Assembly: GCF_003334355.1 (NCBI RefSeq)
Contig: NZ_QOWP01000040.1
Reading direction: 5' to 3' (one strand)
DNA length: 30,137 nt
Source of the DNA: Escherichia coli
GTDB lineage: Bacteria > Pseudomonadota > Gammaproteobacteria > Enterobacterales > Enterobacteriaceae
In this document: positions 10,377-17,513 of the stretch, one piece after another
Layout: each line of letters opens with the position of its first letter
Position numbering within the stretch: the stretch's first letter is position 1
Position numbers and translations under genes: made by a program
The notes under the pieces: model-generated
What the model was told of the DNA's origin: nothing
Seen by the model: only the letters and a program-made list of their open reading frames with translations
The model's database searches: none

Positions 10377-11150
10377 TCACTCATACTCTGCCCGACACAT
10401 CGCCACAGTATCTTCTATCAGACGGCGCGCTACGGTGCCGGGCGGCGGGAGTAACGGCAAATCGTCATAGCGATACCAGTTCGCCTCAAGCAATTCTTTC
10501 GGGTCGATCACGATGTCGCCGCTGTCATATTCCGCCATAAACGCGGTCATTAAAGACTGAGGAAACGGCCACGGCTGGGAAGTCACATAACGCAAGTTTT
10601 TAACTTTAATTCCGCTCTCTTCCATCACTTCCCGCGCGACCGCCTGCTCGAGGGTTTCGCCCACTTCGACGAATCCGGCAAGTACTGTATGGACACCGTT
10701 ACGATGGCGGGTATGCTGGGCGAGGAGGATCGAATCATCGCGACGGATGGCAACAATAATGCAGGGGGCGATTTGCGGGTAGTAACGCTCACGGCAATGG
10801 CTGCACAGCATCGCCCATTCGGTTTTGCTCGGATACATTTCATGCCCGCAGTAACCACAGTATTTATGCGATCGGTAAAACTCCGCCAGTTGTACGCCTC
10901 GTCCGGCCAGTTGAAACAGCCCAACATCGAGATCAATGACCTGACGTACCGACCCCATATCGTGACGCCGCTGCTGTTGTACTAACCAAACAGGTTCCCC
11001 CTGCCATTCGCCGATTTGTAGTGCGCGCTGACCCACAAGATCGAAATTTGCCGCTTCGCCATATGGCAATTCTCCCTTCGGCAACCATAATTTTTGTTCA
11101 TGGCTGACGACCCACCAGCCGTGATCTAATTTTTCAATTATACGATCCAT
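10377..11150 (-). CDS. nudC: NADH pyrophosphatase / RNA decapping Nudix hydrolase
   Basis: 257-aa ORF with zinc-ribbon cysteines (CGYCGH...CSHC) and a Nudix box ([22 protein letters not shown]). Confidence 0.96.
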
Positions 11151-11244
11151 AGCTCTTGCACTACCTTTGCATCACTGGCATGTTTAACATGGTTTTTACA
11201 TTTCTCACTGAGCAGTTTTTGAATACAAACTTGCGGAGTCAATC

Positions 11245-11721
11245 ATGCTTAACCAGCTCGATAACCTGACGGAGCGCGTCAGAGGAAGTAACAAACTGGT
11301 TGATCGCTGGCTACATGTACGTAAGCATCTGCTCGTGGCTTACTACAATCTGGTTGGCATTAAGCCTGGCAAAGAATCGTACATGAGGCTAAACGAAAAA
11401 GCCCTTGATGATTTTTGTCAGAGCCTGGTCGATTACTTGTCTGCCGGACATTTCAGTATTTATGAGCGCATTCTTCATAAGCTGGAAGGCAACGGGCAAC
11501 TCGCGCGCGCCGCGAAGATTTGGCCGCAACTCGAAGCCAATACCCAACAGATTATGGATTACTACGATTCCAGCCTGGAAACCGCCATCGATCATGATAA
11601 TTACCTTGAGTTTCAACAGGTTTTATCTGACATCGGCGAGGCGCTGGAAGCGCGCTTTGTGCTGGAAGATAAGCTGATTCTGCTGGTGCTTGACGCCGCC
11701 CGCGTCAAACATCCTGCTTGA
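11245..11721 (+). CDS. rsd: Regulator of sigma D (anti-sigma70 factor)
   Basis: 158-aa ORF MLNQLDNLTERVRGSNKLVDRWLHVRKHLLVAYYNLVGIKPGKE...; divergent from nudC. Confidence 0.95.
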   Translation: MLNQLDNLTERVRGSNKLVDRWLHVRKHLLVAYYNLVGIKPGKESYMRLNEKALDDFCQSLVDYLSAGHFSIYERILHKLEGNGQLARAAKIWPQLEANTQQIMDYYDSSLETAIDHDNYLEFQQVLSDIGEALEARFVLEDKLILLVLDAARVKHPA

Positions 11722-11769
11722 GTTCTGCGCTGTTAACGCGTAATTTACATTCAACGCCCCGTTTGTGGG

Positions 11770-11900
11770 GGCTAATTTCTTGTCGGAGTGCCTTAACTGG
11801 CTGAGACCGTTTATTCGGGATCCGCGGAACCTGATCAGGCTAATACCTGCGAAGGGAACAAGAGTTAATCTGCTATCGCATCGCCTTTGCGGCGATCGTC
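11770..11900 (+). promoter_or_regulatory. TPP (thiamine pyrophosphate) riboswitch / thi-box leader of thiC, with downstream hairpin (ATCGCC-TTTGC-GGCGAT, about 11878-11894) as candidate expression platform
   Basis: Contains conserved thi-box elements CTGAGA (11801-11806) and ACCTGATCAGGCTAATACCTGCGAAGGGAACAAG (about 11829-11862), located in the 5' UTR of thiC. Confidence 0.85.
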
Positions 11901-11951
11901 TCTTGCTTCATCCGTCGTCTGACAAGCCACGTCCTTAACTTTTTGGAATGA

Positions 11952-13849
<1,898 letters not shown>

Positions 13850-13850
<1 letters not shown>

Positions 13851-14485
13851 TGTATCAGCCTGATTTTCCTCCTGTACCTTTTCGTTCAGGACTGTACCCG
13901 GTGGTGGACAGCGTACAGTGGATCGAACGTCTGTTGGATGCAGGCGTACGTACTCTCCAGCTACGCATCAAAGATCGGCGCGATGAAGAGGTGGAAGCCG
14001 ATGTCGTGGCGGCAATTGCGCTGGGCCGCCGCTATAACGCGCGATTGTTTATCAACGATTACTGGCGGCTGGCGATCAAGCATCAGGCGTATGGCGTCCA
14101 TTTGGGGCAGGAAGATTTGCAAGCCACCGATCTCAATGCCATCCGCGCGGCAGGCCTGCGGCTGGGCGTTTCGACACATGACGATATGGAAATCGACGTC
14201 GCGCTGGCAGCACGCCCCTCTTATATCGCGCTGGGACATGTGTTCCCGACGCAAACCAAACAGATGCCTTCTGCACCGCAGGGGCTGGAACAGCTGGCAC
14301 GGCATGTTGAGCGACTGGCGGATTATCCCACCGTGGCGATTGGCGGTATCAGTCTGGCACGCGCGCCTGCGGTGATAGCAACGGGTGTCGGCAGTATCGC
14401 CGTCGTCAGCGCCATTACTCAAGCCGCAGACTGGCGTTTGGCAACGGCACAGTTGCTGGAAATTGCAGGAGTTGGCGATGAATGA
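13850..14485 (+). CDS. thiE: Thiamine-phosphate synthase
   Basis: ATG at 13850 overlaps the thiC stop (TGATG); product [24 protein letters not shown]..., 211 aa. Confidence 0.95.
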
Positions 14486-15233
14486 CCGTGACTTTATGCG
14501 TTATAGCCGCCAAATCCTGCTCGACGATATCGCTCTGGACGGGCAGCAAAAACTGCTCGACAGCCAGGTGCTGATTATCGGTCTGGGCGGGCTGGGTACA
14601 CCTGCTGCGCTGTACCTGGCGGGCGCTGGCGTCGGGACGCTGGTACTGGCAGATGACGACGATGTGCATTTAAGCAATCTGCAACGACAAATCCTCTTTA
14701 CCACTGAAGATATCGATCGCCCGAAATCGCAGGTCAGCCAACAGCGACTGACACAGTTGAATCCCGACATTCAACTGACAGCATTACAACAACGGTTAAC
14801 GGGTGAGGCGTTAAAAGATGCGGTTGCACGGGCCGATGTGGTGCTCGACTGTACCGACAATATGGCGACTCGCCAGGAGATTAATGCCGCCTGCGTGGCA
14901 CTCAACACGCCGCTTATCACCGCCAGCGCGGTCGGATTTGGCGGTCAGTTGATGGTACTGACGCCGCCCTGGGAGCAGGGGTGTTACCGCTGCCTGTGGC
15001 CAGATAACCAGGAGCCAGAACGCAACTGCCGCACGGCGGGCGTGGTTGGCCCGGTGGTCGGGGTTATGGGCACTTTGCAGGCACTGGAAGCCATTAAGTT
15101 ATTAAGCGGTATAGAGACACCTGCGGGAGAACTCCGACTGTTCGACGGTAAATCGAGCCAGTGGCGCAGCCTGGCGTTGCGCCGCGCCAGTGGTTGCCCG
15201 GTATGCGGAGGAAGCAATGCAGATCCTGTTTAA
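14478..15233 (+). CDS. thiF: ThiS adenylyltransferase (E1-like)
   Basis: Internal ATG at 14478 overlapping the thiE stop (ATGAATGA); product [15 protein letters not shown]... with GLGGLG nucleotide-binding motif and CxxC pairs; about 251 aa. Confidence 0.93.
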
Positions 15234-15417
15234 CGATCAAGCGATGCAGTGCGCCGCCGGGCAAACTGTTCACGAACTACTGGAGCAACTCGACCAACGA
15301 CAAGCGGGCGCGGCTCTGGCGATTAATCAGCAAATCGTCCCGCGTGAGCAGTGGGCGCAACATATCGTGCAGGATGGCGACCAGATCCTGCTTTTTCAGG
15401 TTATTGCAGGGGGTTGA
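15217..15417 (+). CDS. thiS: Sulfur-carrier protein ThiS (ubiquitin-like, C-terminal Gly-Gly)
   Basis: 66-aa product [25 protein letters not shown]...LLFQVIAGG; start overlaps the thiF 3' end by 17 nt. Confidence 0.93.
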
Positions 15418-15418
15418 A

Positions 15419-16189
15419 ATGTTACGTATTGCGGACAAAACGTTTGATTCACATCTGTTTACCGGCACAGGGAAATTCGCTTCTTCACAACTGATGGTGG
15501 AGGCGATCCGCGCTTCCGGCAGCCAGCTGGTGACACTGGCGATGAAACGTGTCGACTTGCGCCAGCACAACGACGCTATCCTCGAACCGCTTATCGCGGC
15601 GGGTGTGACCCTGCTGCCAAATACATCCGGGGCGAAAACAGCGGAAGAAGCCATTTTCGCCGCCCATCTGGCTCGTGAAGCGTTAGGCACAAACTGGTTA
15701 AAATTAGAGATTCACCCTGACGCCCGCTGGCTGTTGCCCGATCCCATCGAAACCCTGAAAGCCGCCGAAACGCTGGTACAACAGGGATTTGTCGTGCTGC
15801 CTTACTGCGGGGCCGATCCGGTATTGTGTAAACGTCTGGAAGAAGTCGGCTGTGCAGCGGTGATGCCGCTCGGCGCGCCGATTGGCTCGAATCAGGGACT
15901 GGAAACCCGCGCCATGCTGGAGATTATTATCCAGCAGGCCACAGTGCCGGTGGTTGTCGATGCTGGCATCGGCGTTCCCAGCCATGCCGCGCAGGCGCTG
16001 GAAATGGGGGCCGACGCGGTGTTAGTGAATACGGCGATTGCCGTCGCGGACGATCCCGTCAACATGGCGAAGGCATTTCGTCTGGCGGTAGAAGCAGGCC
16101 TACTGGCACGTCAGTCCGGACCGGGCAGCCGCAGTTATTTTGCTCATGCCACCAGCCCGCTGACCGGATTTCTGGAGGCATCGGCATGA
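15419..16189 (+). CDS. thiG: Thiazole synthase
   Basis: ATG at 15419, 1 nt after the thiS stop; product [20 protein letters not shown]..., 256 aa. The ORF-track N-terminal extension is rejected. Confidence 0.95.
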
Positions 16190-17319
16190 AAACCTTCAGC
16201 GATCGCTGGCGACAACTGGACTGGGACGACATCCGCCTGCGTATCAACGGCAAAACGGCTGCTGACGTAGAGCGGGCGCTAAATGCCTCGCAACTCACCC
16301 GCGACGACATGATGGCGCTGTTATCGCCTGCCGCCAGTGGCTATCTGGAACAACTGGCCCAACGGGCGCAGCGTCTGACCCGTCAGCGATTTGGCAACAC
16401 AGTTAGTTTCTACGTCCCGCTTTATCTTTCCAATCTTTGCGCTAACGACTGCACGTACTGTGGATTTTCCATGAGTAATCGCATCAAGCGCAAAACGCTG
16501 GATGAAGCGGATATTGCCAGGGAAAGTGCCGCTATACGGGAGATGGGCTTTGAACATCTGCTGTTAGTCACTGGTGAACATCAGGCGAAAGTGGGGATGG
16601 ATTACTTTCGTCGTCATCTCCCTGCCCTTCGTGAACAGTTCTCTTCACTACAGATGGAAGTGCAACCGCTGGCGGAGACGGAATACGCCGAGTTAAAGCA
16701 ACTTGGTCTGGATGGCGTGATGGTTTATCAGGAGACATATCACGAGGCGACTTATGCCCGCCATCATCTGAAAGGCAAAAAACAGGACTTCTTCTGGCGG
16801 CTGGAAACGCCGGATCGGCTGGGGCGTGCGGGGATTGATAAGATAGGCCTCGGCGCGCTAATTGGCCTTTCCGACAACTGGCGCGTTGACAGCTATATGG
16901 TTGCCGAACATTTGCTATGGCTGCAACAGCATTACTGGCAAAGCCGTTACTCTGTCTCCTTTCCGCGCCTGCGCCCGTGTACTGGCGGCATTGAGCCTGC
17001 GTCGATTATGGATGAACGCCAGTTAGTGCAAACCATCTGCGCCTTCCGACTGCTTGCACCGGAGATTGAACTGTCACTCTCCACGCGGGAATCACCGTGG
17101 TTTCGCGATCGCGTTATTCCGCTGGCGATCAATAACGTCAGCGCCTTCTCGAAAACGCAGCCAGGTGGCTATGCCGATAATCACCCCGAGTTGGAACAGT
17201 TCTCACCGCACGACGATCGCAGACCGGAAGCGGTTGCTGCCGCGTTAACCGCTCAGGGTTTGCAGCCGGTATGGAAAGACTGGGACAGCTATCTGGGACG
17301 CGCCTCGCAAAGACTATGA
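16186..17319 (+). CDS. thiH: 2-iminoacetate synthase (tyrosine lyase, radical SAM)
   Basis: 377-aa ORF with radical-SAM CxxxCxxC motif ([10 protein letters not shown]); start overlaps the thiG stop (ATGA). Confidence 0.96.
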
Positions 17320-17513
17320 GACGGAATGTAAGAACGTAAATTTATTCCGAGCCGCTACGGAAGATGAAAAACGCAAGGTTGTTGAAAGCGTTGTGTTTTT
17401 TTATGGTAGTGCCGTCAGCAGGAATGTTGTCCAGGGCGAAAAGCTTCTTCCTCGTTTCGCCCTGCCTTTCTTAATATTTTCCGTGAAGAATTTGCCCTCT
17501 GAATAACACCCAT

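Follow-up and report, generated by a model that had tools for sequence, protein, structure and literature searches.

The thiC TPP riboswitch in a segment of the Escherichia coli chromosome and the two hairpins that flank its aptamer

The rsd-thiC interval and its aptamer

The window, which is the whole stretch of 30,137 nucleotides (30 kb) analysed here, is a segment of the E. coli chromosome that runs from purH through rsd-thiCEFSGH-rpoCB to tufB. Its mechanically derived list of open reading frames agrees with the RefSeq gene layout; the gene order and the features discussed below are collected in Table 1. Over its whole length the window differs from E. coli ATCC 8739 at 109 positions. The interval 11700-11960 (261 nt) shows 100% identity to many E. 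coli chromosomes and was found in 5421 of 5426 complete genomes.

Table 1. Genes, RNA elements and mapped sites of the thiC leader and its surroundings, in window coordinates (nt, published numbering of the thiC leader).
Feature	Position	Strand	Basis or remark
Gene order			purH, purD, zraRSP, yjaH, hupA, yjaG, nfi, hemE, nudC, rsd, TPP riboswitch, thiCEFSGH, rpoC, rpoB, rplL, rplJ, rplA, rplK, nusG, secE, tuf (RefSeq, from the E. coli ATCC 8739 annotation)
rsd	11245-11721	+	RefSeq
Conserved sigma-70-like element, candidate promoter: TTGAGT (11718-11723), 17-nt spacer, TAATTT (11741-11746)	11718-11746	+	Column conservation
G/C hairpin GCCCC/GUUUGUG/GGGGC, followed by UAAUUUCUUGU	11756-11772	+	Between rsd stop codon and P1; folds, terminator scan
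Published +1 of thiC mRNA (primer-extension 5' end)	11773	+	Residue fit to PMC5234074
TPP riboswitch aptamer (THI element)	11774-11874	+	Rfam RF00059; RefSeq 'TPP riboswitch' at identical coordinates
P1 5' strand CUUGU, nt 7-11	11779-11783	+	Rfam alignment, Chauvier 2017 numbering, folds
CUGAGA, pyrimidine-sensor side	11801-11806	+	Sequence
Pyrophosphate-sensor helix, ACCTGATCAGGCTAATACCTGCGAAGGGAAC	11829-11859	+	Sequence
ON-state basal helix, 5' arm GAACAAGAG, nt 84-92	11856-11864	+	PMC5234074 SS_cons, unconstrained MFE, alignment
P1 3' strand ACAAG, nt 86-90	11858-11862	+	Rfam alignment, folds
Very abundant in-vivo RNA 3' end, MG1655 4196186/4196185	11868/11869	+	Adams et al. 2021 Term-seq tables (PMC7815308)
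Hairpin ATCGCC/TTTGC/GGCGAT, nt 108-124, extendable to 11877-11898	11880-11896	+	Folds, published consensus, oligonucleotides
ON-state basal helix, 3' arm CUCUUGCUUC, nt 128-137	11900-11909	+	C-rich; PMC5234074 SS_cons, folds
Pause site A138	11910	+	PMC5234074 figure legend and numbering
RBS/AUG-sequestering stem-loop, TPP-bound state	11914-11965	+	11914-11934 with 11945-11965; P1-enforced fold, PMC5234074
Anti-P1 3' strand UCUGACAAG, nt 146-154	11918-11926	+	PMC5234074, folds; nearly invariant in 64 leaders
Pause site C158	11930	+	PMC5234074 and numbering
SD-like GGAAUGAG	11945-11952	+	Within sequestering stem
thiC AUG	11955-11957	+	Within sequestering stem
Rho-dependent termination at U184 and C187; C187 checkpoint pause	11956/11959	+	PMC5234074 and numbering
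thiC coding sequence, first gene of thiCEFSGH	11955-13850	+	ORF list, RefSeq
thiCEFSGH	11955-17319	+	RefSeq

The original prediction had placed a TPP riboswitch ahead of thiC and had pointed to the thi-box core, CTGAGA together with ACCTGATCAGGCTAATACCTGCGAAGGGAAC; both blocks are present, and an Rfam covariance scan returned a significant, full-length RF00059 match on the + strand at 11774-11874 (model positions 1-105 of 105, 74.8 bits, E = 3.2e-13; gathering score 54.3 bits), exactly the interval that RefSeq annotates. The conserved sensor blocks, CUGAGA and the ACCUGAUC-GG-UAAUACC-GCG-AGGGA of the pyrophosphate-sensor helix, lie within helices P1-P5, and their columns are invariant or nearly so in 64 enterobacterial leaders. 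All aptamer helices align to the family model, with few non-canonical pairs and these only in two helices of the pyrimidine-sensor arm. From the end of the aptamer to the thiC ATG (11955) there are 81 nt on the sense strand, with thiEFSGH further downstream. We are nearly certain that the element is the E. coli thiC TPP riboswitch, lying ahead of thiCEFSGH.

This riboswitch was reportedly described by Winkler, Nahvi and Breaker in 2002. It is already known in detail, being among the founding riboswitch examples and among the best dissected mechanistically. Its detection here has little discovery value, and RefSeq already annotates the riboswitch at the same coordinates; it serves as a positive control, a real regulatory RNA that was recognised from the raw sequence and on which Rfam agrees.

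The published numbering of the leader was transferred to the window by means of the residues C7, G16, G31, A138, C158, U160, U184, U186, C187 and U188 named by Chauvier et al. 2017 (PMC5234074). All ten fit a single offset only, in which +1 is window position 11773. The coordinate in MG1655 is 4208054 minus the window coordinate; as a check on this map, the stated distance of -87 to thiC fits, and the 3' end of the thi operon lands at window 17470 as predicted. The element is the same, at the same locus, as the riboswitch studied in E. coli K-12 (PMC5234074; PMC9098449): there is a base-for-base correspondence of the aptamer, P1, anti-P1, the RBS-sequestering stem, the pauses at A138, C158 and C187, the Rho sites U184/C187 and the A138 hairpin. 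The differences are allelic only, such as a hairpin loop that reads UUUGC here and CCUGC in the K-12 constructs. For the K-12 allele, a G31C mutation abolishes regulation and a Kswitch of ~0.4 uM has been published (PMC5234074).

Alternative folds of the leader

In the published ligand-free Stockholm consensus (PMC5234074, Supplementary Data 1), anti-P1 is formed by CUUGUCGGA with UCUGACAAG, CGCGGA pairs with UCCGUCG, and a helix of GAACAAGAG with CUCUUG(C)UUC is topped by a hairpin of UCGCC with GGCGA. Our unconstrained minimum free energy (MFE) structure of nt 1-200, at -53.8 kcal/mol, reproduces this ON-state architecture; it contains anti-P1, CGCGGA/UCCGUCG, the GAACAAGAG/CUCUUGCUUC helix and the apical hairpin, and the RBS is open. 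The TPP-bound state was mimicked by enforcing the five P1 pairs, the ligand energy being left out of the total. In the fold obtained in this way (-46.6 kcal/mol) the hairpin stays, most of 11899-11913 is unpaired and 11914-11934 pairs with 11945-11965. On these models the leader is predicted to have two mutually exclusive folds that are tied to the formation of P1.

The strands exchanged between the two folds are few. The 5' strand of P1 (11779-11783) pairs with 11858-11862 in the OFF state and is part of anti-P1 in the ON state, and 11918-11926, the other strand of anti-P1, enters the RBS-sequestering stem in the OFF state with the same bases. The published pair U160-A175, which was mutated in PMC5234074, corresponds to 11932-11947 and lies inside this sequestering stem. 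The 3' arm of the ON-state basal helix (11900-11909), which pairs with 11856-11864 in 99.6% of the cells of the E. coli-like class alignment described below, is single-stranded in the P1-enforced fold and belongs to the 100-140 region, where the rut site was initially proposed to lie (PMC5234074). The actual switch is the choice between anti-P1 (11779-11787 with 11918-11926) and the RBS/AUG-sequestering stem (11914-11934 with 11945-11965). The pairing CAAGAG/CUCUUG (11859-11864 with 11900-11905) had been a candidate for anti-P1 and was rejected because the literature puts anti-P1 at 11779-11787 with 11918-11926; it is an additional ON-state helix that is already in the PMC5234074 consensus.

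The literature shows for this sequence that, when TPP is absent, the P1 5' strand pairs with 11918-11926 as anti-P1, 11856-11864 pairs with 11900-11909, and the SD and AUG are free. If TPP is bound during transcription, P1 forms, 11914-11934 sequesters the SD and AUG at 11945-11965, and a rut site becomes accessible. Rho then terminates at U184/C187 (11956/11959), aided by the pause at C187, and abundant TPP would lead to repression of thiCEFSGH. Termination in the thiC leader has been found to be Rho-dependent at U184/C187, with pauses at 138, 158 and 187 in vitro (PMC5234074).

The E. coli thiM and thiB (tbpA) riboswitches have the aptamer family in common with thiC. Both control translation initiation and have a pause near the start codon (PMC5234074), and Rho-dependent premature termination has been published for thiM; their platforms, however, are unrelated in sequence to that of thiC. 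A long platform that combines the A138 pause hairpin with dual anti-P1 pairing is peculiar to the leaders of thiC in Enterobacterales.

The conservation of these elements was followed in 80 Enterobacterales loci, returned with the first 150 residues of ThiC as a query; rsd lies upstream of thiC in every locus for which upstream sequence is at hand. A whole-leader MAFFT alignment misaligned species with long insertions in P3 or in the platform, and we turned to anchor-based folding of each sequence and to an alignment restricted to one class. In the 64 aligned leaders the aptamer core, UCUGACAAGCC and GGAAUGAGCUAUGUCU hardly vary. Between the aptamer and anti-P1, each of the 65 distinct sequences folds into a stem-loop whose apical hairpin varies and is between 17 nt and over 100 nt long, and the published consensus likewise draws the part after the aptamer as a stem-loop of variable length (PMC5234074). 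This stem-loop comes in two classes, an E. coli-like one closed by GAACAAGAG/CUCUUGCUUC and a Salmonella/Citrobacter/Kosakonia-like one closed by GAGUAAU/AUUACUC. Among the 31 sequences of the E. coli-like class, 97.4% of cells can pair, compared with 34-52% when the partners are slid, and two pairs show compensatory changes from G-C to A-U; the hairpin sequence is mostly conserved in this class, so covariation there is thin.

The hairpin downstream of the aptamer

A hairpin of ATCGCC-TTTGC-GGCGAT had been predicted downstream of the aptamer at 11878-11894. The hairpin exists, at 11880-11896 and not at the predicted position, and two extra pairs (C11877-G11898 and G11878-C11897) lengthen its stem. 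It is also part of the expression platform as had been suggested, and it appears in the published ON-state consensus. Folded alone (11872-11900) it reaches -10.0 kcal/mol with z = -1.97, and 8 of 200 shuffled sequences did as well, so that by calculated energy alone it would be only marginally beyond chance; it is its conservation, together with published mutagenesis, that makes the hairpin real. The folds predict it in both the ON and the OFF state while its flanks switch, and being present in both it cannot itself be the switch. In the ON-state MFE structure the apical hairpin uses the repeated AUCGC in a shifted register, and the exact ON-state pairing is thus not fixed by the folds.

For RNA ends in vivo we consulted the Term-seq tables of Adams et al. 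2021 (PMC7815308). They list a very abundant 3' end at 4196186/4196185 of MG1655, flagged as Rho-dependent and as 'riboswitch', and the same Term-seq study gives a bicyclomycin-sensitive region inside thiC. This 3' end is nt +96/+97, which is 5-6 bases past the 3' strand of P1 and 11-12 bases upstream of the 11880-11896 hairpin. We infer that it represents the Rho-terminated transcript trimmed back to the TPP-stabilised P1.

Two functions had been offered for the hairpin, termination and RBS control. The first recalls the terminator-type TPP riboswitches of Firmicutes, such as the Bacillus subtilis tenA and thiC leaders, in which a ligand-dependent terminator hairpin is followed by a U-tract. 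Their order of aptamer and then leader hairpin is also found in E. coli thiC and is the arrangement that the suggestion of termination implies; in the E. coli thiC leader, however, no U-tract follows the hairpin, which is predicted in both states, and Rho-dependent termination takes place further downstream. As an intrinsic (Rho-independent) terminator or attenuator of the kind found in many Gram-positive TPP riboswitches, the 11880-11896 hairpin would offer a G+C-rich stem of 6 bp between the aptamer and the start codon. Against this, its tail reads CGTCTCTTGCTTC / CGUCUCUUGCUUC and the hairpin is not among the five terminator-like sites that a consensus scan called in 11150-12100. The Term-seq tables place the 3' end upstream at 11868/11869 and list none between there and thiC (PMC7815308), and the published text reports only the pauses at 138/158/187 and the Rho-dependent termination at 184/187 in vitro (PMC5234074). 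Together with its presence in both folds and its published role in the A138 pause, these observations leave the terminator reading exceedingly improbable, and we regard it as effectively refuted.

That the hairpin directly masks and unmasks the ribosome-binding site is equally hard to credit. It does lie in the expression platform, ~60 nt upstream of the AUG, but its two arms are paired to one another in either state, the SD and AUG (11945-11965) pair with 11914-11934 instead, and in the published model control of the RBS falls to the sequestering stem and anti-P1 (PMC5234074). In other genera, moreover, the sequence of the apical hairpin is unrelated while the RBS region is invariant. Both suggested roles were dropped, with the terminator scan, the Term-seq ends and the folds all against them.

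The role that the literature gives to this hairpin is in transcriptional pausing. Nadon et al. 2022 (PMC9098449) disrupted an 'A138 hairpin' and saw the A138 pause half-life drop from 14-16 s to 8 s. Their oligonucleotides carry ...ATCGCCCCTGCGGCGATCG... / ...CTATCGCATCGCCCCTGCGGCGATCGTCTCTTGC... in the wild type and ...ATCGCCCCTGCCCGCATCG... in the stem mutant, which identifies the hairpin at 11880-11896 as the A138 hairpin and the mutation as a change of its 3' arm from GGCG to CCGC. The end of the extended stem at 11898 (nt 126) is 12 nt from the pause site A138 (11910), and the end of the core stem at 11896 is 14 nt from it; the 12-nt spacing agrees with the 10-12 nt that characterise a his-type, hairpin-stabilised (class I) pause. 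As summarised in a 2025 review, Chauvier et al. 2019 (RNA Biol) found the most upstream pause to be hairpin-stabilised and NusA-responsive, and a weaker hairpin to give a weaker pause and to lower the affinity with which the full-length riboswitch binds TPP. The hairpin at 11880-11896 is the characterised RNA-polymerase pause hairpin, neither a terminator nor an RBS mask. In keeping with its published role, the hairpin would act with NusA to stabilise the pause at A138 (11910), and this pause would give the completed aptamer more time to bind TPP before transcription reaches the anti-P1 strand. The pause behaviour was measured on the K-12 version with its CCUGC loop, and both this allele and the UUUGC loop of the window occur in the published E. 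coli alignment (PMC5234074).

A close parallel is the pause in the his operon leader (class I, NusA-enhanced), in which, as in thiC, the hairpin ends ~11-12 nt upstream of the paused 3' end; in both systems the pause becomes shorter when the stem is disrupted and is enhanced by NusA. Unlike the his pause, that of thiC lies inside a riboswitch platform and is used for sensing a ligand, not for ribosome coupling, with a modest half-life of ~15 s. In this Gram-negative leader, a hairpin that follows the aptamer should not automatically be taken for a terminator or an RBS mask.

The G/C hairpin after rsd and the thiC start

A G/C hairpin just after rsd had also been predicted, in a register that differs slightly from the one found here. 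The hairpin is present at 11756-11772, where it has five G-C pairs and a 7-nt loop (GTTTGTG). It folds at -11.1 kcal/mol with z = -2.45, a value matched by 4 of 200 shuffles, and the consensus scan calls it terminator-like. In the window it reads GCCCC-GUUUGUG-GGGGC, compared with GCCCCG-UUUG-CGGGGC in other Escherichia genomes. The 72 distinct upstream segments of Enterobacterales contain 65 different hairpin sequences (median energy -11.9 kcal/mol, median z -3.3); the G/C hairpin is real, its structure strongly conserved and its sequence not, and it covaries across these 72 sequences.

The position of this hairpin relative to the thiC start admits two readings. The published +1 (11773) is one base 3' of the G/C stem and comes from primer extension on total RNA (PMC5234074), a method that cannot tell primary ends from processed ends or reverse-transcriptase stops. 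Further upstream, column conservation brings out the sigma-70-like element TTGAGT-17-TAATTT, a candidate promoter whose TTGAGT overlaps the rsd stop codon; it would predict a start at ~11753/11754, 2-3 bases upstream of the G/C stem.

According to the first reading, the hairpin is an intrinsic terminator of rsd that separates this gene from the thi operon, as had originally been suggested, and thiC starts at its 3' foot, at 11773, where the published primer-extension 5' end lies. This is plausible, although we give it somewhat less than an even chance. The terminator-like call of the scan and the invariable position of rsd upstream of thiC speak for it; nearly all of the 72 distinct segments have a stem-loop, most of them ending 4-6 nt before CUUG, and 56 have at least 5 T in a 9-nt tail. 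Several genera have near-ideal terminators (e.g. GACGGGG-UUUUUCUUGU). In Ewingella and Erwinia relatives there is a TTGTAG-17-TATATT/TATGCT promoter with its -10 within a hairpin loop, and in the Ewingella-like loci the predicted start is at the foot of that hairpin, adjoining P1. The E. coli tail, UAAUUUCUU, is however a weak U-tract. For a start at 11773, E. coli and most Enterobacteriaceae lack a suitably placed -10/-35 pair; the hexamers there would be GCGTAA and GTTTGT. The Term-seq tables for two conditions list no 3' end from 4196186 to 4196488, although ends inside rsd were called (PMC7815308); a weak end could be masked by the calling thresholds and by low expression of rsd.

The second reading takes the G/C hairpin as a 5'-proximal stem-loop of the thiC leader, transcribed from TTGAGT-17-TAATTT with a start at ~11753/11754, and the published +1 as the product of processing or of a reverse transcriptase that stopped where the stem ends. 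We consider it possible but doubtful. The columns of TTGAGT, the 17-nt spacer and TA[AG]TTT are conserved in 59-68 of 68 loci each, also past the stop codon of rsd, and in Pectobacterium TTGACA-17-TACAGT occupies the corresponding position. The distance from the end of the -10 to the start of the hairpin is mostly 7-11 nt, which would put the stem within a few nucleotides of the 5' end; leaders of the Erwinia type likewise have a predicted start upstream of the hairpin adjacent to P1. That the published +1 derives only from primer extension of total RNA and falls exactly one base past the stem also fits this second reading. On the other side, we found no experimental 5' end near 11753, the hexamers TTGAGT and TAATTT are weak (7 of 12 matches) and fail a stricter consensus scan, and their conservation may partly reflect the C-terminus and stop codon of rsd. 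A good terminator directly after a promoter would, in addition, waste transcription; the reading as a leader hairpin can nevertheless coexist with partial terminator activity of the hairpin. If the second reading is true, the primary 5' end of thiC would lie ~20 nt upstream of 11773, and the stem-loop, placed ahead of the riboswitch, would stabilise the mRNA, serve as an insulator or work as a partial attenuator.

A scan for consensus sigma-70 promoters between rsd and P1 called none, and the accessible parts of the Cappable-seq and SMRT-Cappable-seq supplements hold no entries at the rsd-thiC coordinates. Another promoter candidate, TTCAAC-17-TAATTT (11750-11778, with its -10 just before CUUG), was rejected, since a start from it would fall within P1 and its sequence lacks conservation. 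An account of how the upstream stem-loop, the promoter-like element and the published start relate to one another would refine the annotation of a model system and would not open a new field. A reporter-library construct, in the part of its description available to us, is said to carry the natural thiC promoter together with the riboswitch and to be expressed and to respond to TPP, and its expression indicates that a promoter lies in the cloned region.

RNA 3′ end and upstream elements of the thiC leader

The TPP riboswitch aptamer ahead of thiC ends its P1 helix at 11862, and a few bases further on, at 11868-11869, the published Term-seq tables place an extremely abundant RNA 3′ end with ~1.8-1.9 million reads, whereas the rsd-internal 3′ ends in the same tables reach 26-82 thousand reads (Adams et al. 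2021, PMC7815308). The position of this end just beyond P1 indicates that cells build up a stable RNA fragment comprising the aptamer alone.

Upstream of the aptamer, the segment 11718-11772 carries a conserved sigma-70-like element (TTGAGT-17 nt-TA[AG]TTT) that overlaps the rsd stop codon. It precedes a G/C stem-loop, also conserved, and exactly 1 base past this stem comes the published +1 of thiC, at 11773. The resulting order from 11718 onward, a promoter-like element followed by a terminator-like hairpin and then a riboswitch, is unusual.

Leader variation among Enterobacterales loci

The loci named below by L-numbers come from a set of 80 Enterobacterales loci collected by a ThiC N-terminal search. 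The post-aptamer stem-loop is closed by GAGUAAU/AUUACUC, replacing the E. coli-type GAACAAGAG/CUCUUGCUUC, in 25 of them (L007, L010, L011, L013, L015, L016, L023, L027, L033, L034, L036, L044, L046, L050, L052, L054, L056, L057, L059, L060, L062, L068, L070, L073 and L078). The ON-state helix of the E. coli-type loci covers most of the P1 3′ strand; in these 25 loci its overlap with that strand is limited to the final bases, and it otherwise involves the sequence that immediately follows.

The two P1 strands lie ~180-205 nt apart in Phytobacter, Kosakonia and Citrobacter loci (L014, L017, L027, L033, L043-L045, L050, L052, L054, L059 and L060), compared with 77 nt in E. coli, a spacing that points to a large insert within the aptamer.

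An insertion of ~100 nt replaces the short pause hairpin in the aptamer-thiC interval of L019 and L028 (both Kluyvera) and of L058. The inserted sequence folds as a long, irregular stem-loop (about -55 kcal/mol), and a second motif resembling CTGAGA is present within it.

Elements at the thi operon end and downstream of rplL

Features of the thiH-rpoC and rplL-rpoB intergenic regions
Feature	Position	Strand	Remarks
thi operon 3′-end region	17430-17472	+	thiH-rpoC intergenic; Term-seq 3′ end
'Pseudomonas sRNA P26' (RF00630)	26143-26204	-	Rfam match, 71.1 bits (gathering score 36)

The RF00630 match is located immediately downstream of rplL (26209-26574, -) and comprises a pair of hairpins, with UUUUU directly after the second; the segment is the rplL-rpoB intergenic attenuator region. 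The family name here probably labels this conserved leader element, not an independent sRNA.

The Term-seq 3′ end of the thi operon, MG1655 4190584 (PMC7815308), corresponds to 17470 in the window and is preceded by a hairpin, CAGGGCGAAA...UUUCGCCCUG, and then the tract CCUUUCUU. The published Term-seq table places sroH on the opposite strand of this intergenic region (PMC7815308).
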